From a virus (Duplodnaviria > Heunggongvirae > Uroviricota > Caudoviricetes): a stretch of DNA of 4,247 bases. How positions within the stretch are numbered: position 1 is the stretch's first letter; each line of letters begins with the position of its first letter. The position numbers and the translations under genes are program-made. The DNA is taken from IMG/VR virus record IMGVR_UViG_2675903481_000017, one strand, 5' to 3'. Below are positions 1 to 4,247 of the stretch, one piece after another. A model generated the notes under the pieces. That model made no database searches. It was not told the origin of the DNA and was given only the letters and a program-made list of their open reading frames with translations.

Positions 1-651
1 GCATTGTTGATCGTCGCCAACCAGTACGGCCTTAATCCGTGGACGAAAGAAATTTACGCCTTCCCTGATAAGCAGAACGGCATTGTTCCGGTGGTGGGCG
101 TTGATGGCTGGTCCCGCATCATCAATGAAAACCAGCAGTTTGATGGTATGGACTTTGAGCAGGACAATGAATCATGTACATGCCGGATTTACCGCAAAGA
201 CCGCAATCATCCGATCTGCGTTACCGAGTGGATGGATGAATGCCGCCGCGAACCATTCAAAACCCGCGAAGGCAGAGAAATCACGGGGCCGTGGCAGTCG
301 CATCCCAAACGGATGTTACGGCATAAAGCCATGATTCAGTGTGCCCGTCTGGCCTTCGGATTTGCTGGTATCTATGACAAGGATGAAGCCGAGCGCATTG
401 TCGAAAATACCGCATACACTGCAGAACGTCAGCCGGAACGCGACATCACTCCGGTTAACGATGAAACCATGCAGGAGATTAACACTCTGCTGATTGCCCT
501 GGACAAAACATGGGATGACGACTTATTGCCGCTCTGTTCCCAGATATTTCGCCGCGACATTCGCGCATCGTCAGAACTGACACAGGCCGAAGCAGTGAAA
601 GCTCTTGGATTCCTGAAACAGAAAGCCACTGAGCAGAAGGTGGCAGCATGA
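1..651 (+). CDS. bet: Red-beta (Bet) single-strand annealing protein, RecT/Red-beta family; 5' end lies upstream of the window (partial)
   Basis: The frame is open from base 1 with no start codon in the window. The translation ([55 protein letters not shown] ... [15 protein letters not shown]) matches my recollection of the C-terminal ~215 residues of lambda Bet. The TGA stop at 649-651 overlaps the exo ATG (ATGA), as in lambda. Confidence 0.88.
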
Positions 652-1328
652 CACCGGACATTATCCTGCAGCGTACCGGGATCGACGTGAGAGCTGTCGA
701 ACAGGGGGATGATGCATGGCACAAATTACGGCTCGGCGTCATCACCGCTTCAGAAGTTCACAACGTGATAGCAAAGCCCCGCTCAGGAAAGAAGTGGCCT
801 GACATGAAAATGTCCTACTTCCACACCCTGCTGGCTGAGGTTTGCACCGGTGTGGCTCCGGAAGTTAATGCTAAGGCGCTGGCGTGGGGAAAACAGTACG
901 AGAACGACGCCAGAACCCTGTTTGAATTCACTTCCGGCGTGAATGTTACTGAATCCCCGATCATCTATCGCGACGAAAGTATGCGCACCGCCTGCTCTCC
1001 CGATGGTTTATGCAGTGACGGCAATGGCCTTGAGCTGAAATGCCCGTTTACCTCCCGGGATTTCATGAAGTTCCGGCTCGGTGGTTTCGAGGCCATAAAG
1101 TCGGCTTACATGGCCCAGGTGCAGTACAGCATGTGGGTGACACGAAAAGATGCCTGGTACTTTGCCAACTATGACCCACGAATGAAGCGTGAAGGCCTGC
1201 ATTATGTCGTGGTTGAGCGGGATGAAAAGTACATGGCGAGTTTTGACGAGATGGTGCCGGAGTTCATCGAAAAAATGGACGAAGCACTGGCTGAAATTGG
1301 TTTTGTATTTGGAGAGCAATGGCGATGA
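648..1328 (+). CDS. exo: Lambda-type 5'-3' exonuclease (Red-alpha, Exo), 226 aa
   Basis: The 226-aa translation [50 protein letters not shown]...[11 protein letters not shown] matches lambda Exo as I recall it, with a few substitutions. An AAGGTGG Shine-Dalgarno at 637-643 sits 4 nt before the ATG. Start is coupled to the bet stop (ATGA at 648-651). Confidence 0.92.
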
Positions 1329-1507
1329 CCCATCCTCACGATAATATCCGGGTAGGCGCGATCACTTTCGTCTACTCCGTTACAAAGCGAGGCTGGGTAT
1401 TTCACGGTCTTTCTGTTATCCGAAATCCGCTGAAAGCCCAGCGGCTGGCTGAGGAGATAAATAATAAACGGGGGGCGGTATGCACAAAGCATCTCCTGTT
1501 GAGTTAA
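1325..1507 (+). CDS. orf60a: Small early-left protein, 60 aa, lambda orf60a-like (function unknown)
   Basis: ATG at 1325 overlaps the exo TGA (ATGA at 1325-1328). Length of 60 codons and position directly after exo match lambda orf60a. The ORF track extends it 2 codons upstream (1319); the coupled ATG at 1325 is preferred. The name rests on recollection of the lambda map, not on a search. Confidence 0.65.
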
Positions 1508-1671
1508 GAACGAGTATTGATTTGGCACATAGCCTTGCTCAAATTGGAGTCAGGTTTGTGCCAATACCAGCAGAAACAGACGAAGAATTTCATACGTTAG
1601 CCACATCCCTTTCACAAAAGCTGGAAATGATGGTGGCGAAAGCAGAAGCAGATGAGAGAGACCAGGTATGA
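1480..1671 (+). CDS. orf63: Small early-left protein, 63 aa, lambda orf63-like (function unknown)
   Basis: 63 codons, with a 28-nt overlap onto the preceding ORF, as in the lambda orf60a/orf63 arrangement. A G-rich stretch (1471-1478) precedes the ATG at 1480. Acidic C-terminus (AEADERDQV). Confidence 0.65.
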   Translation: MHKASPVELRTSIDLAHSLAQIGVRFVPIPAETDEEFHTLATSLSQKLEMMVAKAEADERDQV

Positions 1672-1751
1672 CAACCACTGAATGCATTTTTCTGGCAGCG
1701 GGCTTCATATTCTGTGTGCTTATGCTTGCCGACATGGGGCTTGTTCAGTGA
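1668..1751 (+). CDS. Candidate 27-aa hydrophobic micro-protein (MTTTECIFLAAGFIFCVLMLADMGLVQ), possible single-pass membrane peptide
   Basis: Its ATG overlaps the orf63 stop (ATGA at 1668-1671), the same coupling geometry used at the bet/exo and exo/orf60a junctions. An uninterrupted hydrophobic core of about 20 residues. Below the ORF-track length cut-off. Competes with the 1682-1864 frame. Confidence 0.25.
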   Translation: MTTTECIFLAAGFIFCVLMLADMGLVQ

Positions 1752-1864
1752 CACCTCAGCAAGAAAACGCCCTTCGCAGCATTGCCCGTCAGGCTAATTC
1801 TGAAATCAAAAAAGTCAGACAGCAGTTTCCAAAAACGTCAATGACATTTGCCGTAGCGTACTGA
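1682..1864 (+). CDS. Small hypothetical protein, 60 aa (in the position where lambda carries orf61; identity uncertain)
   Basis: Open frame of 60 codons. The same frame is also open upstream from an ATG at 1652 but is interrupted by TGA at 1679-1681, immediately followed by this ATG. No convincing Shine-Dalgarno. It overlaps the alternative 27-aa frame at 1668-1751, so only one of the two is likely real. Confidence 0.4.
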   Translation: MHFSGSGLHILCAYACRHGACSVTPQQENALRSIARQANSEIKKVRQQFPKTSMTFAVAY

Positions 1865-1979
1865 AGAAGCACCGCGAAACGGTAACGCTGAAGGGATTCA
1901 CACCGACTCATTTAAGCCTGGCAATCGGCATGTTAAACGGCGTCTTTAAGGAACGATGAACATGAAAAGCAAAATTATC

Positions 1980-2002
1980 AGGGAGCTACAGGCTCCTTTT
2001 TT
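1980..2002 (+). terminator. Candidate rho-independent terminator (short GC stem plus T6 tract), + strand
   Basis: GGAGC (1982-1986) and GCTCC (1992-1996) form a 5-bp stem around a 5-nt loop, extendable by A-U/G-U pairs, followed by TTTTTT (1997-2002). Orientation fits pL-direction transcription. The stem is short, so the strength is modest. Confidence 0.3.
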
Positions 2003-2074
2003 ATTGTTCGCATTCACCCTCAAGCGTATTAACCAACAGTTCAGGGATTAATGAAAGATGGCAGACATCATTGA

Positions 2075-2084
2075 NNNNNNNNNN
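2075..2084. other. Run of 10 N (unresolved or masked bases)
   Basis: Literal nnnnnnnnnn in the sequence. The true length and content are unknown, so ORF calls crossing it are unreliable. Confidence 0.99.
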
Positions 2085-2189
2085 CGATCCGATAGATGAA
2101 CGAAGACGCCTGGCCGTTCAGGGTTGTCGGACTTGCGCCAGTTGCCAGCAAGATCTGGAGCTTATCCGCAAACAAAGGGGGATTAAGTG

Positions 2190-2516
2190 ATGGCTAACCT
2201 GCAACTTGCTGTTAAAAGTGAATACTTCGATGCCATGATTCGCGGAGAGAAAACGGAAGAGTATCGCTTGTGTAATGACTACTGGAATAAGCGAATTATG
2301 TTCCGGGAATATGACCGCCTGATTATCACAAAGGGATATCCGAAGCGCGACGATTCCAGTCGCAGAATTGATGTTCCGTATGACGGATATGAAGTGAAGA
2401 CAATCACACATCCGCACTTTGGCGATAAACCGGTAAAGGTGTTCGCTATAAAGGTGAATATCAGCACTGAATATCAATCCGCACAACACAAGGTCAAGAA
2501 TGTTCAGAGTGATTGA
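2190..2516 (+). CDS. ASCH-domain (PUA-like fold) protein, 108 aa; predicted nucleic-acid or modified-nucleoside binding or processing
   Basis: AAGGGGG Shine-Dalgarno at 2175-2181, 8 nt before the ATG at 2190 (the track's GTG at 2187 is less likely). The translation contains GEKTEEYR, a perfect match to the ASCH signature GxKxxExR, near the N-terminus. Size of about 110 aa is typical of stand-alone ASCH proteins. Confidence 0.7.
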   Translation: MANLQLAVKSEYFDAMIRGEKTEEYRLCNDYWNKRIMFREYDRLIITKGYPKRDDSSRRIDVPYDGYEVKTITHPHFGDKPVKVFAIKVNISTEYQSAQHKVKNVQSD

Positions 2517-2739
2517 CCCTAACACCTGGTACGTCGACCACCACGGCACTCCCTGCAAAATCCTGCGTTCTACCCACAACAAAGTTCACTACATCCGAAA
2601 AGGCAGAACATGTATCGCCAGCATGTTCCGCTTTAATCATGACTTTGAACCTGTGAATAAAGCTGATGCAGATCGGATAGCAGAAGAGATCGAAACGGCA
2701 GAACACATTAAGAAGTTACGTGACATGCGCAGGAAATAG
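2500..2739 (+). CDS. Hypothetical protein, 79 aa, translationally coupled to the ASCH gene; function unknown
   Basis: ATG at 2500 with AAGG at 2490-2493, 6 nt upstream. It overlaps the 3' end of the ASCH gene by 17 nt. The C-terminal third is basic and charged (EEIETAEHIKKLRDMRRK). I recognise no named family. Confidence 0.55.
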   Translation: MFRVIDPNTWYVDHHGTPCKILRSTHNKVHYIRKGRTCIASMFRFNHDFEPVNKADADRIAEEIETAEHIKKLRDMRRK

Positions 2740-2878
2740 AAAAATTGATAAATTCAATACTGCATTTCTCAGCATTAAATTTATCTCTATGACCAGTCAA
2801 GAGATGTACCTGCCATGAGCTTAATATCATGTCAGATATATCGGTCACAAACTCCCTCAGCAGCTAAGAGGAGGACAA
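2740..2878 (+). promoter_or_regulatory. AT-rich intergenic leader upstream of xis with a strong ribosome-binding site; possible promoter or regulatory region
   Basis: This is the longest non-coding gap in the window (139 bp, clearly AT-rich). A TTGATA -35-like hexamer sits at 2745-2750 but has no well-spaced -10 partner. AAGAGGAGG (2866-2874) lies 4 nt before the xis ATG. No consensus sigma70 promoter could be confirmed. Confidence 0.25.
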
Positions 2879-3115
2879 ATGTCTCGACTAATCACTTTAC
2901 AGGACTGGGCTAAAGAAGAATTTGGGGACTTAGCACCAAGTGAGCGAGTTCTGAAAAAATACGCGCAAGGGAAAATGATGGCCCCACCCGCTATAAAAGT
3001 TGGTCGCTACTGGATGATTGACCGAAATTCCCGTTTTGTAGGAACGCTTGCAGAACCGCAACTCCCAATAAACGCAAACCCAAAACTCCAAAGGATAATC
3101 GCTGATGGCTGCTAG
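2879..3115 (+). CDS. xis: Excisionase (lambda Xis-like), 78 aa
   Basis: Sits immediately upstream of int and overlaps it by 11 nt. The N-terminal ITLQDWAKEE and PPAIKVGRYWMI motifs align to lambda Xis YLTLQEWNAR and PPPVKDGREYLF, but the protein is clearly not lambda Xis itself. Strong Shine-Dalgarno. Confidence 0.8.
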   Translation: MSRLITLQDWAKEEFGDLAPSERVLKKYAQGKMMAPPAIKVGRYWMIDRNSRFVGTLAEPQLPINANPKLQRIIADGC

Positions 3116-4247
3116 ACCCCGATCTCACAAAATCTCTATACCCAATTTATATTGCAAATTAGATAAGCGAACCGGAAAGGTATATTGGCAATACAAACAT
3201 CCACTATCCGGTCGTTTTCATAGCTTAGGAACTGATGAGAATGAAGCAAAACAAGTTGCTACTGAAGCAAATACCATTATTGCTGAACAACGTACCAGAC
3301 AAATATTAAGCGTCAATGAGCGTCTGGAAAGAATGAAAGGCAGGCGCTCAGACATTACGGTGACAGAATGGCTTGATAAATATATTTCTATCCAAGAGGA
3401 CAGGCTGCAACATAATGAACTAAGACCCAACTCCTATCGGCAAAAAGGCAAACCCATTCGTCTTTTCCGTGAGCATTGTGGAATGCAACACCTCAAGGAT
3501 ATTACCGCACTTGATATTGCCGAAATAATTGATGCTGTAAAGGCTGAAGGTCATAACAGGATGGCGCAAGTCGTGAGAATGGTGTTGATCGACGTCTTCA
3601 AAGAAGCACAACACGCAGGACATGTTCCGCCAGGATTTAACCCAGCGCAGGCAACAAAACAACCGCGAAATCGAGTAAACCGCCAAAGATTGTCACTGCC
3701 CGAATGGCAGGCAATATTTGACAGCGTAAGCAGACGGCAGCCCTATTTAAAATGCGGCATGCTACTTGCTCTTGTTACTGGACAACGTTTAGGCGATATC
3801 TGCAATTTGAAATTCTCTGATATATGGGACGACATGTTGCACATTACTCAGGAAAAAACCGGTTCAAAACTTGCTATTCCGCTTAACCTGAAATGCGATG
3901 CTCTGAATATTACCCTTCGTGAAGTTATATCTCAGTGCAGGGATGCTGTTGTTAGTAAATATCTGGTCCATTACCGTCACACTACCTCTCAAGCAAACAG
4001 AGGAGACCAGGTTTCTGCGAATACTCTGACAACGGCTTTTAAAAAGGCCCGGGAAAAATGTGGCATAAAATGGGAGCAAGGAACTGCGCCCACATTTCAT
4101 GAGCAGCGATCTCTGTCAGAACGGTTATATCGGGAACAGGGTCTGGATACGCAAAAGTTGTTAGGCCATAAATCCAGAAAAATGACCGACCGATACAATG
4201 ATGATCGTGGTAAAGACTGGATTATCGTAGATATCAAAACAGCATAG
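3105..4247 (+). CDS. int: Site-specific tyrosine integrase, lambda Int family, 380 aa
   Basis: The N-terminus (RSHKISIPNLY...) aligns to the lambda Int arm-binding N-terminus (RRSHERRDLPPNLY). Conserved catalytic signatures are present: TGQRLGD (Arg), HEQRSLSERLY (His-x-x-Arg), LLGHKS (His), and the nucleophile Tyr in DRYNDDRG (codon TAC at 4194-4196). AT-rich with rare codons, typical of int genes. The TAG stop is the last triplet of the window. Confidence 0.93.
   Translation: MAARPRSHKISIPNLYCKLDKRTGKVYWQYKHPLSGRFHSLGTDENEAKQVATEANTIIAEQRTRQILSVNERLERMKGRRSDITVTEWLDKYISIQEDRLQHNELRPNSYRQKGKPIRLFREHCGMQHLKDITALDIAEIIDAVKAEGHNRMAQVVRMVLIDVFKEAQHAGHVPPGFNPAQATKQPRNRVNRQRLSLPEWQAIFDSVSRRQPYLKCGMLLALVTGQRLGDICNLKFSDIWDDMLHITQEKTGSKLAIPLNLKCDALNITLREVISQCRDAVVSKYLVHYRHTTSQANRGDQVSANTLTTAFKKAREKCGIKWEQGTAPTFHEQRSLSERLYREQGLDTQKLLGHKSRKMTDRYNDDRGKDWIIVDIKTA

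Follow-up and report, generated by a model that had tools for sequence, protein, structure and literature searches.

The 4,247-nt stretch of caudoviricete DNA analysed here (IMG/VR record IMGVR_UViG_2675903481_000017; hereafter the window) joins recombination genes resembling those of phage lambda to a divergent xis-int module, raising the question of whether it records a noteworthy exchange or an ordinary state of lambdoid phages. An earlier note on the same DNA favoured an exchange, with non-lambda content starting at 1656. Our analysis reveals, on the plus strand, the order bet, exo, orf60a, orf63, a frameshifted orf61-like gene, a 31-aa ORF, orf73, an ASCH-like gene, a DUF4222 gene, an AT-rich leader, xis, and int (Table 1). 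Taken as a whole, the window very probably comes from a lambdoid prophage of the phage 21 type and covers the distal portion of its leftward early (pL) operon. Judged from its sequence, it is the recombination-to-integrase segment of such a prophage, and an ordinary example, previously sequenced and described.

Table 1. Features of the window, with the evidence for each assignment.
Feature	Coordinates	Strand	Evidence
bet (Red-beta/RecT annealase), last 216 codons, cut by window start	1..651	+	Pfam RecT, E 3e-28; annotated bet in UTI89 and phage 21
exo (lambda exonuclease)	648..1328	+	Pfam YqaJ, E 4e-30; 99.1% aa identity to phage 21 Exo
orf60a homologue (DUF1317)	1325..1507	+	Pfam DUF1317, E 8e-39
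orf63 homologue (DUF1382)	1480..1671	+	Pfam DUF1382, E 9e-29; 93.7% aa identity to phage 21
orf61-like gene, frameshifted	1682..1959	+	Alignment with lambda and phage 21; matches phrog_26061 and phrog_303
31-aa ORF (phage 21 CPT_21_39 equivalent)	1956..2051	+	ORF list and phage 21 annotation; conserved in lambda and phage 21
orf73 homologue (TraR/DksA-type C4 zinc finger)	2058..2190	+	Gap-filled UTI89 copy: Pfam zf-dskA_traR, E 7e-9
Mosaic junction relative to lambda	2181..2191		orf73 stop overlapping next-gene start; BLASTN alignment to lambda ends at 2180
ASCH-like accessory gene	2190..2516	+	phrog_625, E 2e-51; PGAP 'ASCH domain-containing'
DUF4222 gene	2500..2739	+	Pfam DUF4222, E 4e-19; phrog_285
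AT-rich leader, GC 0.37	2740..2878		Composition; inverted repeat 2747-2785; xis Shine-Dalgarno AAGAGGAGG at 2866-2874
xis, phage 21-type excisionase	2879..3115	+	Pfam Exc PF07825; phrog_629, E 5e-36
int, phage 21-type tyrosine integrase, 380 aa, complete	3105..4247	+	Pfam Arm-DNA-bind_1 and Phage_integrase; window ends at int stop

Local BLAST searches of phage and E. coli sequence collections gave matches to the whole window. Phage PhiR63_2 is 100% identical to it, phage ev207 99.8%, and phage 21 97.5%, and the prophage of E. coli UTI89 is likewise 100% identical, as are IHE3034, APEC O18, and others. Of 5426 complete E. coli genomes, 978 (about one-fifth) contain at least 80% of the window. 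The leader-xis-int segment (2740–4247) is found in 1592 of these genomes (about 29%) and in 28 phage records, among them a separate GenBank entry for int/xis/icd of phage 21 (M61865), which matches at 99.3% DNA identity; OL657228 matches likewise. The phage 21 record, whose source is given as Paris sewer in the late 1950s, already contains the complete arrangement. In particular, phage 21 (OL657228; M61865) shares the gene order of the whole window, with the ASCH-like protein and Orf73 100% identical, and its DNA is 96.2% identical to the window on the left and 98.75% on the right. Essentially uniform identity to one known phage, which the earlier note had taken to speak against its own proposal, is what these matches to phage 21, ev207, and PhiR63_2 display. 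The element appears to be a relative of phage 21 and not phage 21 itself, because divergence is uneven: 3.8% on the left, as great a distance as that between lambda and the window, and 1.25% on the right, with a cluster of differences at 2650–2730. The differences in the DUF4222 protein, which is 88.6% identical to that of phage 21, are clustered there.

Alignment with lambda (NC_001416) locates a single break. DNA identity is 96.6% over 1–2074 and 89.6% over 2085–2180 (the last 96 nt of orf73); beyond 2180, no lambda DNA aligns except for a 60-nt patch at 73% in int. The final bases common to both are AAGTGA, at 2185–2190, and a three-way alignment past this point has lambda entering ea22 and both the window and phage 21 entering the ASCH-like gene. 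Phages 1W, 1H12, D2, and VT2-Sakai break at the same position, with differing downstream content. Relative to lambda, the window has one sharp module boundary, located at a gene boundary. The proposed start of non-lambda content at 1656 is not upheld: the interval 1656–2180 is still 96–98% identical to lambda up to the less similar last 96 nt, placing the junction ~530 nt farther rightward. The intervening segment, said to be unlike lambda's ea22/ea8.5 region, fits that description at 2191–2878 (ASCH-like gene, DUF4222 gene, and leader), the only part that replaces lambda ea22, ea8.5, and orf55, but not at 1656–2180 (orf61-like gene, 31-aa ORF, and orf73). The mosaic pattern is real, but is textbook lambdoid modularity.

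A run of 10 N at 2075–2084 interrupts orf73 and precedes the homology break by only ~100 nt, a position that might suggest that the junction was created in assembly by joining two unrelated contigs. However, UTI89 and many other complete genomes and phages continue across the gap, with flanks 100% identical to the window on either side; the N run stands for 99 nt of orf73, itself lambda-homologous, that UTI89, phage 21, and lambda all contain; and homology is lost only past the gap, at the orf73 stop. The contiguous matches across the N run rule out an assembly artefact, the probability of which is negligible.

The genes to the left of the junction are, as the earlier note stated, nearly identical to those of lambda at the protein level: 215 of 216 residues in Bet (99.5%), 98.7% in Exo, 98.3% in Orf60a, and 88.9% in Orf63. 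Orf73 is 90.4% identical to the product of lambda orf73, which is unannotated there. The values for Bet and Exo would suit a recent, notable hybrid in which a foreign integration module had only lately been attached to lambda's recombination genes here, and such hybrids exist: in phage D2, a left block 99.9% identical to lambda is joined via an Ea22 fragment to a 21-type xis/int. At the DNA level, however, the left block of the window has no special affinity to lambda: its identity is 96.3% with lambda, 96.5% with phage 21, 97.0% with 1W, and 96.4% with VT2-Sakai, and every pair among the sampled phages is 96–97% identical. Being equidistant from lambda, phage 21, 1W, 1H12, and VT2-Sakai, bet-orf73 is therefore a conserved block of the whole lambdoid pool, not specifically lambda's. 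The presence of the complete arrangement in phage 21 and in 978 complete E. coli genomes likewise argues against a recent hybrid, which we regard as extremely improbable.

The conserved exo-xis block of lambda and Stx phages comprises orf60a, orf63, orf61, orf73, and ea22 (PMC8614690), and lambda Orf73 is a TraR homologue (PMC9239242). The window contains this block in incomplete form: it has orf60a, orf63, and orf73, its orf61-like gene carries a frameshift, and ea22 is absent, because lambda homology stops exactly at the expected ea22 start. The frameshift is a 4-nt deletion (GGAT, lost after ~1831) that leaves an open frame stopping at 1864 and the remainder in another frame; the gene is labelled 'ZapA, frameshifted' by PGAP in UTI89 and, unlike in the window, is intact in phage 21. 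A terminator scan placed a terminator-like hairpin on the plus strand at 1980–1998, inside the 31-aa ORF.

The composition of the window shifts from left to right. Specifically, GC falls from 0.502 over 1–2186 to 0.437 over 2187–4247, GC3 is 0.58–0.61 in bet/exo versus 0.38–0.42 in xis/int, and the rare-codon fraction is 4–7% in bet/exo versus 13% in xis/int. These shifts could be read as the mark of an integration module recently imported from a lower-GC donor outside the lambdoid pool. However, lambda's own xis/int have similarly low values (GC 0.45–0.49, GC3 0.41–0.47) and 13–15% rare codons, and the GC/codon shift therefore does not mark the exchange. The drop, moreover, does not coincide with the breakpoint, starting already at orf63 (0.438), within the lambda-homologous block; Int carries the lambda-specific arm-binding domain and can be aligned with lambda Int over its full length; and, in the phage and E. 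coli collections searched, int/xis are restricted to E. coli phages and prophages. With these points against it, recent import from such a donor is very unlikely. Low GC is instead a family trait of lambdoid int modules, and the AT-rich, rare-codon integrase region described earlier is confirmed as a measurement but not as evidence of an exchange.

The xis and int products reveal the affinity of the right side. Xis is 100% identical to phage 21 Xis, 36% to e14 XisE, and 21% to lambda Xis (47 aa), and passes the Pfam Exc (PF07825) cut-off of 23 with 26.5 bits. Int is 99.2% identical to phage 21 Int, 60% to e14 IntE, and 34.8% (BLASTP) to 37% (MAFFT) to lambda Int. It contains an arm-binding domain (PF09003, E 2e-28) and a catalytic domain (PF00589, E 9e-24), and matches lambda Int structures 1z1b and 5j0n in the PDB end to end (E 2e-55). 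The description of both proteins as lambda-family yet divergent from lambda's own is thus accurate. The catalytic residues R228, K255, H332, R335, H355, and Y364 fall in invariant columns aligned with lambda Int, where their counterparts are R212, K235, H308, R311, H333, and Y342. Int and Xis are probably active.

The attachment site and the point at which lambda homology resumes lie outside the window, and both were read in UTI89 and phage 21. In the UTI89 copy (100% identical), icd lies 114 nt past int; beyond int are three TTTTGGGGAAG arm repeats, followed by a terminator and then the icd 3′ end. This region and the attP region of phage 21 are 95.3% identical, the crossover falls at CATATGGCGCAGCA, and the arm repeats and the phage-borne icd 3′ end are shared by phage 21. 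In lambda, attB is located between gal and bio. Because Int and Xis match those of phage 21 so closely, and because the UTI89 copy adjoins icd with phage 21 arm sites, the 21-type Int/Xis module of the window is predicted to set an attachment site other than lambda's, namely the icd 3′ end. Int and Xis would insert the prophage at the 3′ end of host icd and excise it from there; attP would lie just past the right end of the window, and a phage-borne replacement icd 3′ end would leave icd intact. The earlier idea of a module exchange that sets attachment specificity holds relative to lambda, with icd as the site, but not as a noteworthy junction of lambda with foreign DNA.

Comparison with other icd-integrated elements places the window among phage 21-type prophages. 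Phage 21 and e14 reportedly have an attB in common (Wang et al. 1997, as cited in PMC12803456). The e14 cryptic prophage of E. coli K-12, though located at icd, differs in having lit, ymfD/E, and ymfH as neighbours and in having no Red/exo-xis block beside xisE. The NC-SV prophage of E. coli NC101 is described as an icd-integrated lambdoid prophage, and the UTI89 prophage is of this kind. The svsR sRNA reported for NC-SV was considered as a feature of the window and rejected, as it sits at the cI 3′ end, outside the window. Lambda shares the operon layout ending in xis-int and the Int and Xis protein families, but has ea22, ea8.5, and orf55 in place of the ASCH-like and DUF4222 genes; with xis/int diverged and DNA alignment past 2180 confined to the 60-nt patch, the window and lambda are not the same element.

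The ASCH-like and DUF4222 genes appear to be cassettes that assort independently, with the former behaving as a presence/absence cassette. The ASCH-like gene is absent from 1W and 1H12, lies elsewhere in VT2-Sakai, and is found in Stx phages and P22-like Salmonella phages. In Stx phages of the VT2-Sakai/933W type, bet-orf73 is 96.4% identical to the window and the ASCH-like gene H0074 is 94.5% identical to 2191–2480; but orf73 is separated from the ASCH-like gene by an ea22-like gene and five more genes, and xis/int form an unrelated module that integrates at wrbA. The name ASCH for the 2190–2516 product stems from PGAP; its match to Pfam ASCH (PF04266) covers residues 6–28 only, at E 0.067 and 14.3 bits versus a cut-off of 21.2. 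A PDB sequence search with this protein returned no match, and an AlphaFold model from the single sequence, without an alignment, had a pLDDT of 43 and was unusable. None of the ASCH-like, DUF4222, and xis proteins had a model in NCBIfam.

The leader (2740–2878) is almost invariant across 21-type modules. The inverted repeat at 2747–2785 folds more stably in minus-strand RNA (−21.3 kcal/mol, z −4.1) than in plus-strand RNA (−7.4), and a U-rich tail lies behind the minus-strand hairpin. The curated phage 21 record carries no annotation of this hairpin. We speculate, tentatively and at rather low odds, that the hairpin may serve specifically to terminate transcripts antisense to int/xis. If so, it may insulate the exo-xis genes or delimit an antisense RNA controlling int/xis expression in icd-integrated prophages; one candidate source of transcripts would be read-through from host icd, which points into the prophage. 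A consensus scan found no minus-strand promoter within int/xis, and sigma-70 and terminator consensus scans of the window yielded site counts not above those of shuffled sequence. The CII motif TTGYN6TTGY had no match within the window, and TTGCN6TTGC with one mismatch had two sites (832 and 1716), below chance and with none near xis; no pI-like promoter could be placed by these scans. An Rfam search of the whole window, with E up to 1, returned no match.

Our results suggest how the arrangement may have arisen. The left of the boundary is the block common to all sampled lambdoid phages (96–97% DNA identity), and the right is phage 21's ASCH-DUF4222-xis-int instead of lambda's ea22-ea8.5-orf55-xis-int. 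The two were presumably brought together by the usual lambdoid route, that is, recombination in conserved flanks or illegitimate gene-boundary joins kept by selection, and cassettes such as ASCH and DUF4222 were probably reshuffled one by one later. The exchange is likely to be old and widely inherited and not recent in this genome. The value of the finding is mainly one of annotation: the window exemplifies standard lambdoid mosaicism, in which a conserved Red/exo-xis block, assorting cassettes, and an icd integration module are combined. What it adds in precision is the exact junction, at the orf73 stop and next-gene start, which has been reused by several phage lineages.

Comparison of the window with lambda (NC_001416) reveals a break in homology at the orf73 stop codon. 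BLASTN matches lambda over 1-2074 (96.6% identity) and 2085-2180 (89.6%); right of 2180, the only match is a 60-nt, 73% patch within int. In a three-way alignment of the window, lambda, and phage 21 (OL657228), the last common bases are AAGTGA (2185-2190), in which the orf73 stop codon and the start of the following gene overlap; past this point, lambda continues to ea22, and the window and phage 21 continue to an ASCH-like gene. The junction therefore lies within 1656-2878, where an earlier note had proposed it, some 530 nt in from the left edge of that interval, which had been set too far left. The intervening content, which the note had considered non-lambda throughout, is so only from the ASCH-like gene on: homology to lambda persists through the orf61 region, the 31-aa ORF, and orf73. 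Orf73 has been described previously (PMC9239242, PMC8614690); it lacks annotation in NC_001416, and tblastn finds the lambda copy at 90.4%. The 10 N at 2075-2084 stand in for 99 nt of orf73 coding sequence that UTI89, phage 21, and lambda all have; they reflect masking or a gap and have no biological meaning.

Features of the window, compiled from the ORF list and the annotations of identical or near-identical records
Feature	Position	Strand	Pfam
bet, 3′ part	1-651	+	RecT
exo	648-1328	+	YqaJ
orf60a	1325-1507	+	DUF1317
orf63	1480-1671	+	DUF1382
orf61-like gene, frameshifted	1682-1959	+	
31-aa ORF	1956-2051	+	
orf73, TraR/DksA zinc finger	2058-2190	+	zf-dskA_traR
ASCH-like gene	2190-2516	+	
DUF4222 gene	2500-2739	+	DUF4222
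AT-rich leader	2740-2878		
xis	2879-3115	+	Exc
int	3105-4247	+	Arm-DNA-bind_1 plus Phage_integrase

PHROGs assignments of the window genes are concordant with the Pfam assignments; the Pfam ASCH match is subthreshold, and the ASCH name is provisional. As the note had proposed, Bet (215/216 aa identical) and Exo (98.7%) are near-identical to their lambda counterparts; of the two small ORFs described likewise, Orf60a is (98.3%), but Orf63 is lower (88.9%). Int and Xis are indeed of the lambda family yet divergent: Int has 34.8% identity to lambda Int (37% by MAFFT), retains the six catalytic residues, and aligns over its full length with lambda Int structures (E 2e-55), and Xis has 21% identity over 47 aa. 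The composition shift cited as a sign of exchange is real, with GC of 0.502 in 1-2186 vs 0.437 in 2187-4247, GC3 of 0.58-0.61 in bet/exo vs 0.38-0.42 in xis/int, and rare codons of 4-7% vs 13%, but it is not diagnostic. Lambda xis/int are alike (GC 0.45-0.49, GC3 0.41-0.47, rare codons 13-15%), and the fall begins at orf63 (GC 0.438), inside the block common to lambda. Low GC characterizes lambdoid integration regions as a family and does not mark this exchange.

The left block (bet-orf73) is not lambda's own. Its identity is 96.3% to lambda, 96.5% to phage 21, 97.0% to phage 1W, 96.1% to phage 1H12, and 96.4% to VT2-Sakai, and these five are equally distant among themselves. We therefore reject the reading of the window as a lambda hybrid, its bet-orf73 being no nearer lambda than other lambdoid phages; the block is a conserved block of the entire lambdoid pool. 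Past the junction, identity to phage 21 is 98.75%: 27 of 2163 nt differ, and roughly half of these differences are located in the 3′ half of DUF4222. Divergence from phage 21 is thus 3.8% on the left vs 1.25% on the right, a significant difference (z about 5, from alignment counts) that fits a left block that is conserved but old and an integration module that is young or strongly constrained. Only phage D2 (OM475427; 501-4576 of L006, the D2 sequence) joins a 99.9% lambda-identical bet-orf73 to 21-type xis/int, and it is a literal lambda/21 integration-module hybrid. The joint in D2 runs through a chimeric 'Ea22' ORF, in which the Ea22 N-terminus is fused to the 3′ part of DUF4222 from window 2627, to 21-type xis/int and an icd fragment.

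The junction is a gene boundary that has been used repeatedly, and the accessory genes are cassettes. In phages 1W and 1H12, the aligned portions of the window are 1-2194 and 2496-4247, so that precisely the ASCH-like gene is missing; in D2, they are 1-2180 and 2627-4247, the Ea22 fragment lying between; and VT2-Sakai aligns to 1-2180, followed by an ea22-like gene, five more genes, and then an ASCH-like gene (L007, the VT2-Sakai sequence, 7240-7529; window 2191-2480, 94.5%). Beyond the latter, VT2-Sakai differs in having an unrelated xis/int at wrbA; 21-type phages differ from lambda in having no ea22. Within the phage collection, 367 records match any part of the window; the ASCH/DUF4222 segment is in 193, of which only 8 have the two genes together, and 28 records match the xis-int segment, all at least 98.9% identical. 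The xis-int segment also occurs in 1592 of 5426 complete E. coli genomes. The ASCH-like gene itself is a discrete presence/absence cassette with edges at gene starts and stops, absent in 1W and 1H12 (L004/L005 2785-2823), at another position in VT2-Sakai, and found also in P22-like Salmonella phages.

Several smaller features accompany these genes. Compared with lambda and phage 21, the orf61-like gene has lost 4 nt (GGAT) after about 1831 and is thereby frameshifted (PGAP label in UTI89, 'ZapA, frameshifted'). In the adjacent A-run (window 1808-1813), lambda has one extra A, and its 61-aa orf61 is therefore itself a truncated reading of a longer gene, annotated at 71-93 aa in phage 21 and VT2-Sakai. 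A 27-codon ORF (1668-1751) encoding a strongly hydrophobic peptide (MTTTECIFLAAGFIFCVLMLADMGLVQ) begins in an ATGA shared with the orf63 stop and overlaps the frame of the orf61-like gene; it is conserved at the DNA level in lambda and phage 21, and a PHROG search gave no match. The 31-aa ORF lying between the orf61-like gene and orf73 contains a + strand terminator-like hairpin (1980-1998; AGGGAGCT-aca-GGCTCCTT, then TTTTATTGTT) that lambda and phage 21 conserve; it may act as one of the terminators in the leftward operon. Ahead of xis, the AT-rich leader contains a 16-bp imperfect inverted repeat (2747-2785), nearly invariant across phage 21, 1W, 1H12, and D2 and without annotation in the phage 21 record. 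As minus-strand RNA, its predicted hairpin (−21.3 kcal/mol, z −4.1, then U-rich tail AAUUUUUCUAUUU; + strand just −7.4) resembles an intrinsic terminator that would act on transcripts antisense to int/xis.

The feature is already known. Full-length identity to the window is 100% for phage PhiR63_2, 99.8% for phage ev207, and 97.5% for phage 21; prophages in UTI89, IHE3034, APEC O18, and many other E. coli match at 100%, and at least 80% of the window is present in 978 of 5426 complete E. coli genomes. The nearest known element is phage 21 (int-xis-icd record, M61865), followed by many E. coli prophages integrated in icd, then e14 (IntE 60%, XisE 36% identity), then lambda, for the left block only. 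The closest integrase homolog, for which phage 21 or e14 at icd had been suggested, is phage 21-type, and the UTI89 prophage copy is at icd, which lies 114 nt past int. In the intervening spacer (8337-8450 of L001, the UTI89 prophage locus, just past the right end of the window), three tandem TTTTGGGGAAG arm-type repeats and a terminator hairpin of high GC separate int from the phage-borne icd 3′ end. Together with that end, the spacer is 95.3% identical to the annotated attP region of phage 21, the repeats and hairpin being identical to its P1-P3 region; phage 21 homology stops at CATATGGCGCAGCA, from which host icd continues.

In lambda and phage 21, these genes are transcribed leftward from pL, Int recombines attP with attB together with host factors, and Xis directs excision. 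The host is known to tolerate insertion at the 3′ end of icd because the phage brings a substitute 3′ end. A CII-dependent int promoter was looked for in the window, and none could be placed. The Int and Xis encoded in the window are probably active. The proposed modular exchange holds relative to lambda, without being a notable new junction: the module arrangement would have arisen well before this genome, as lambdoid phages recombined with one another.
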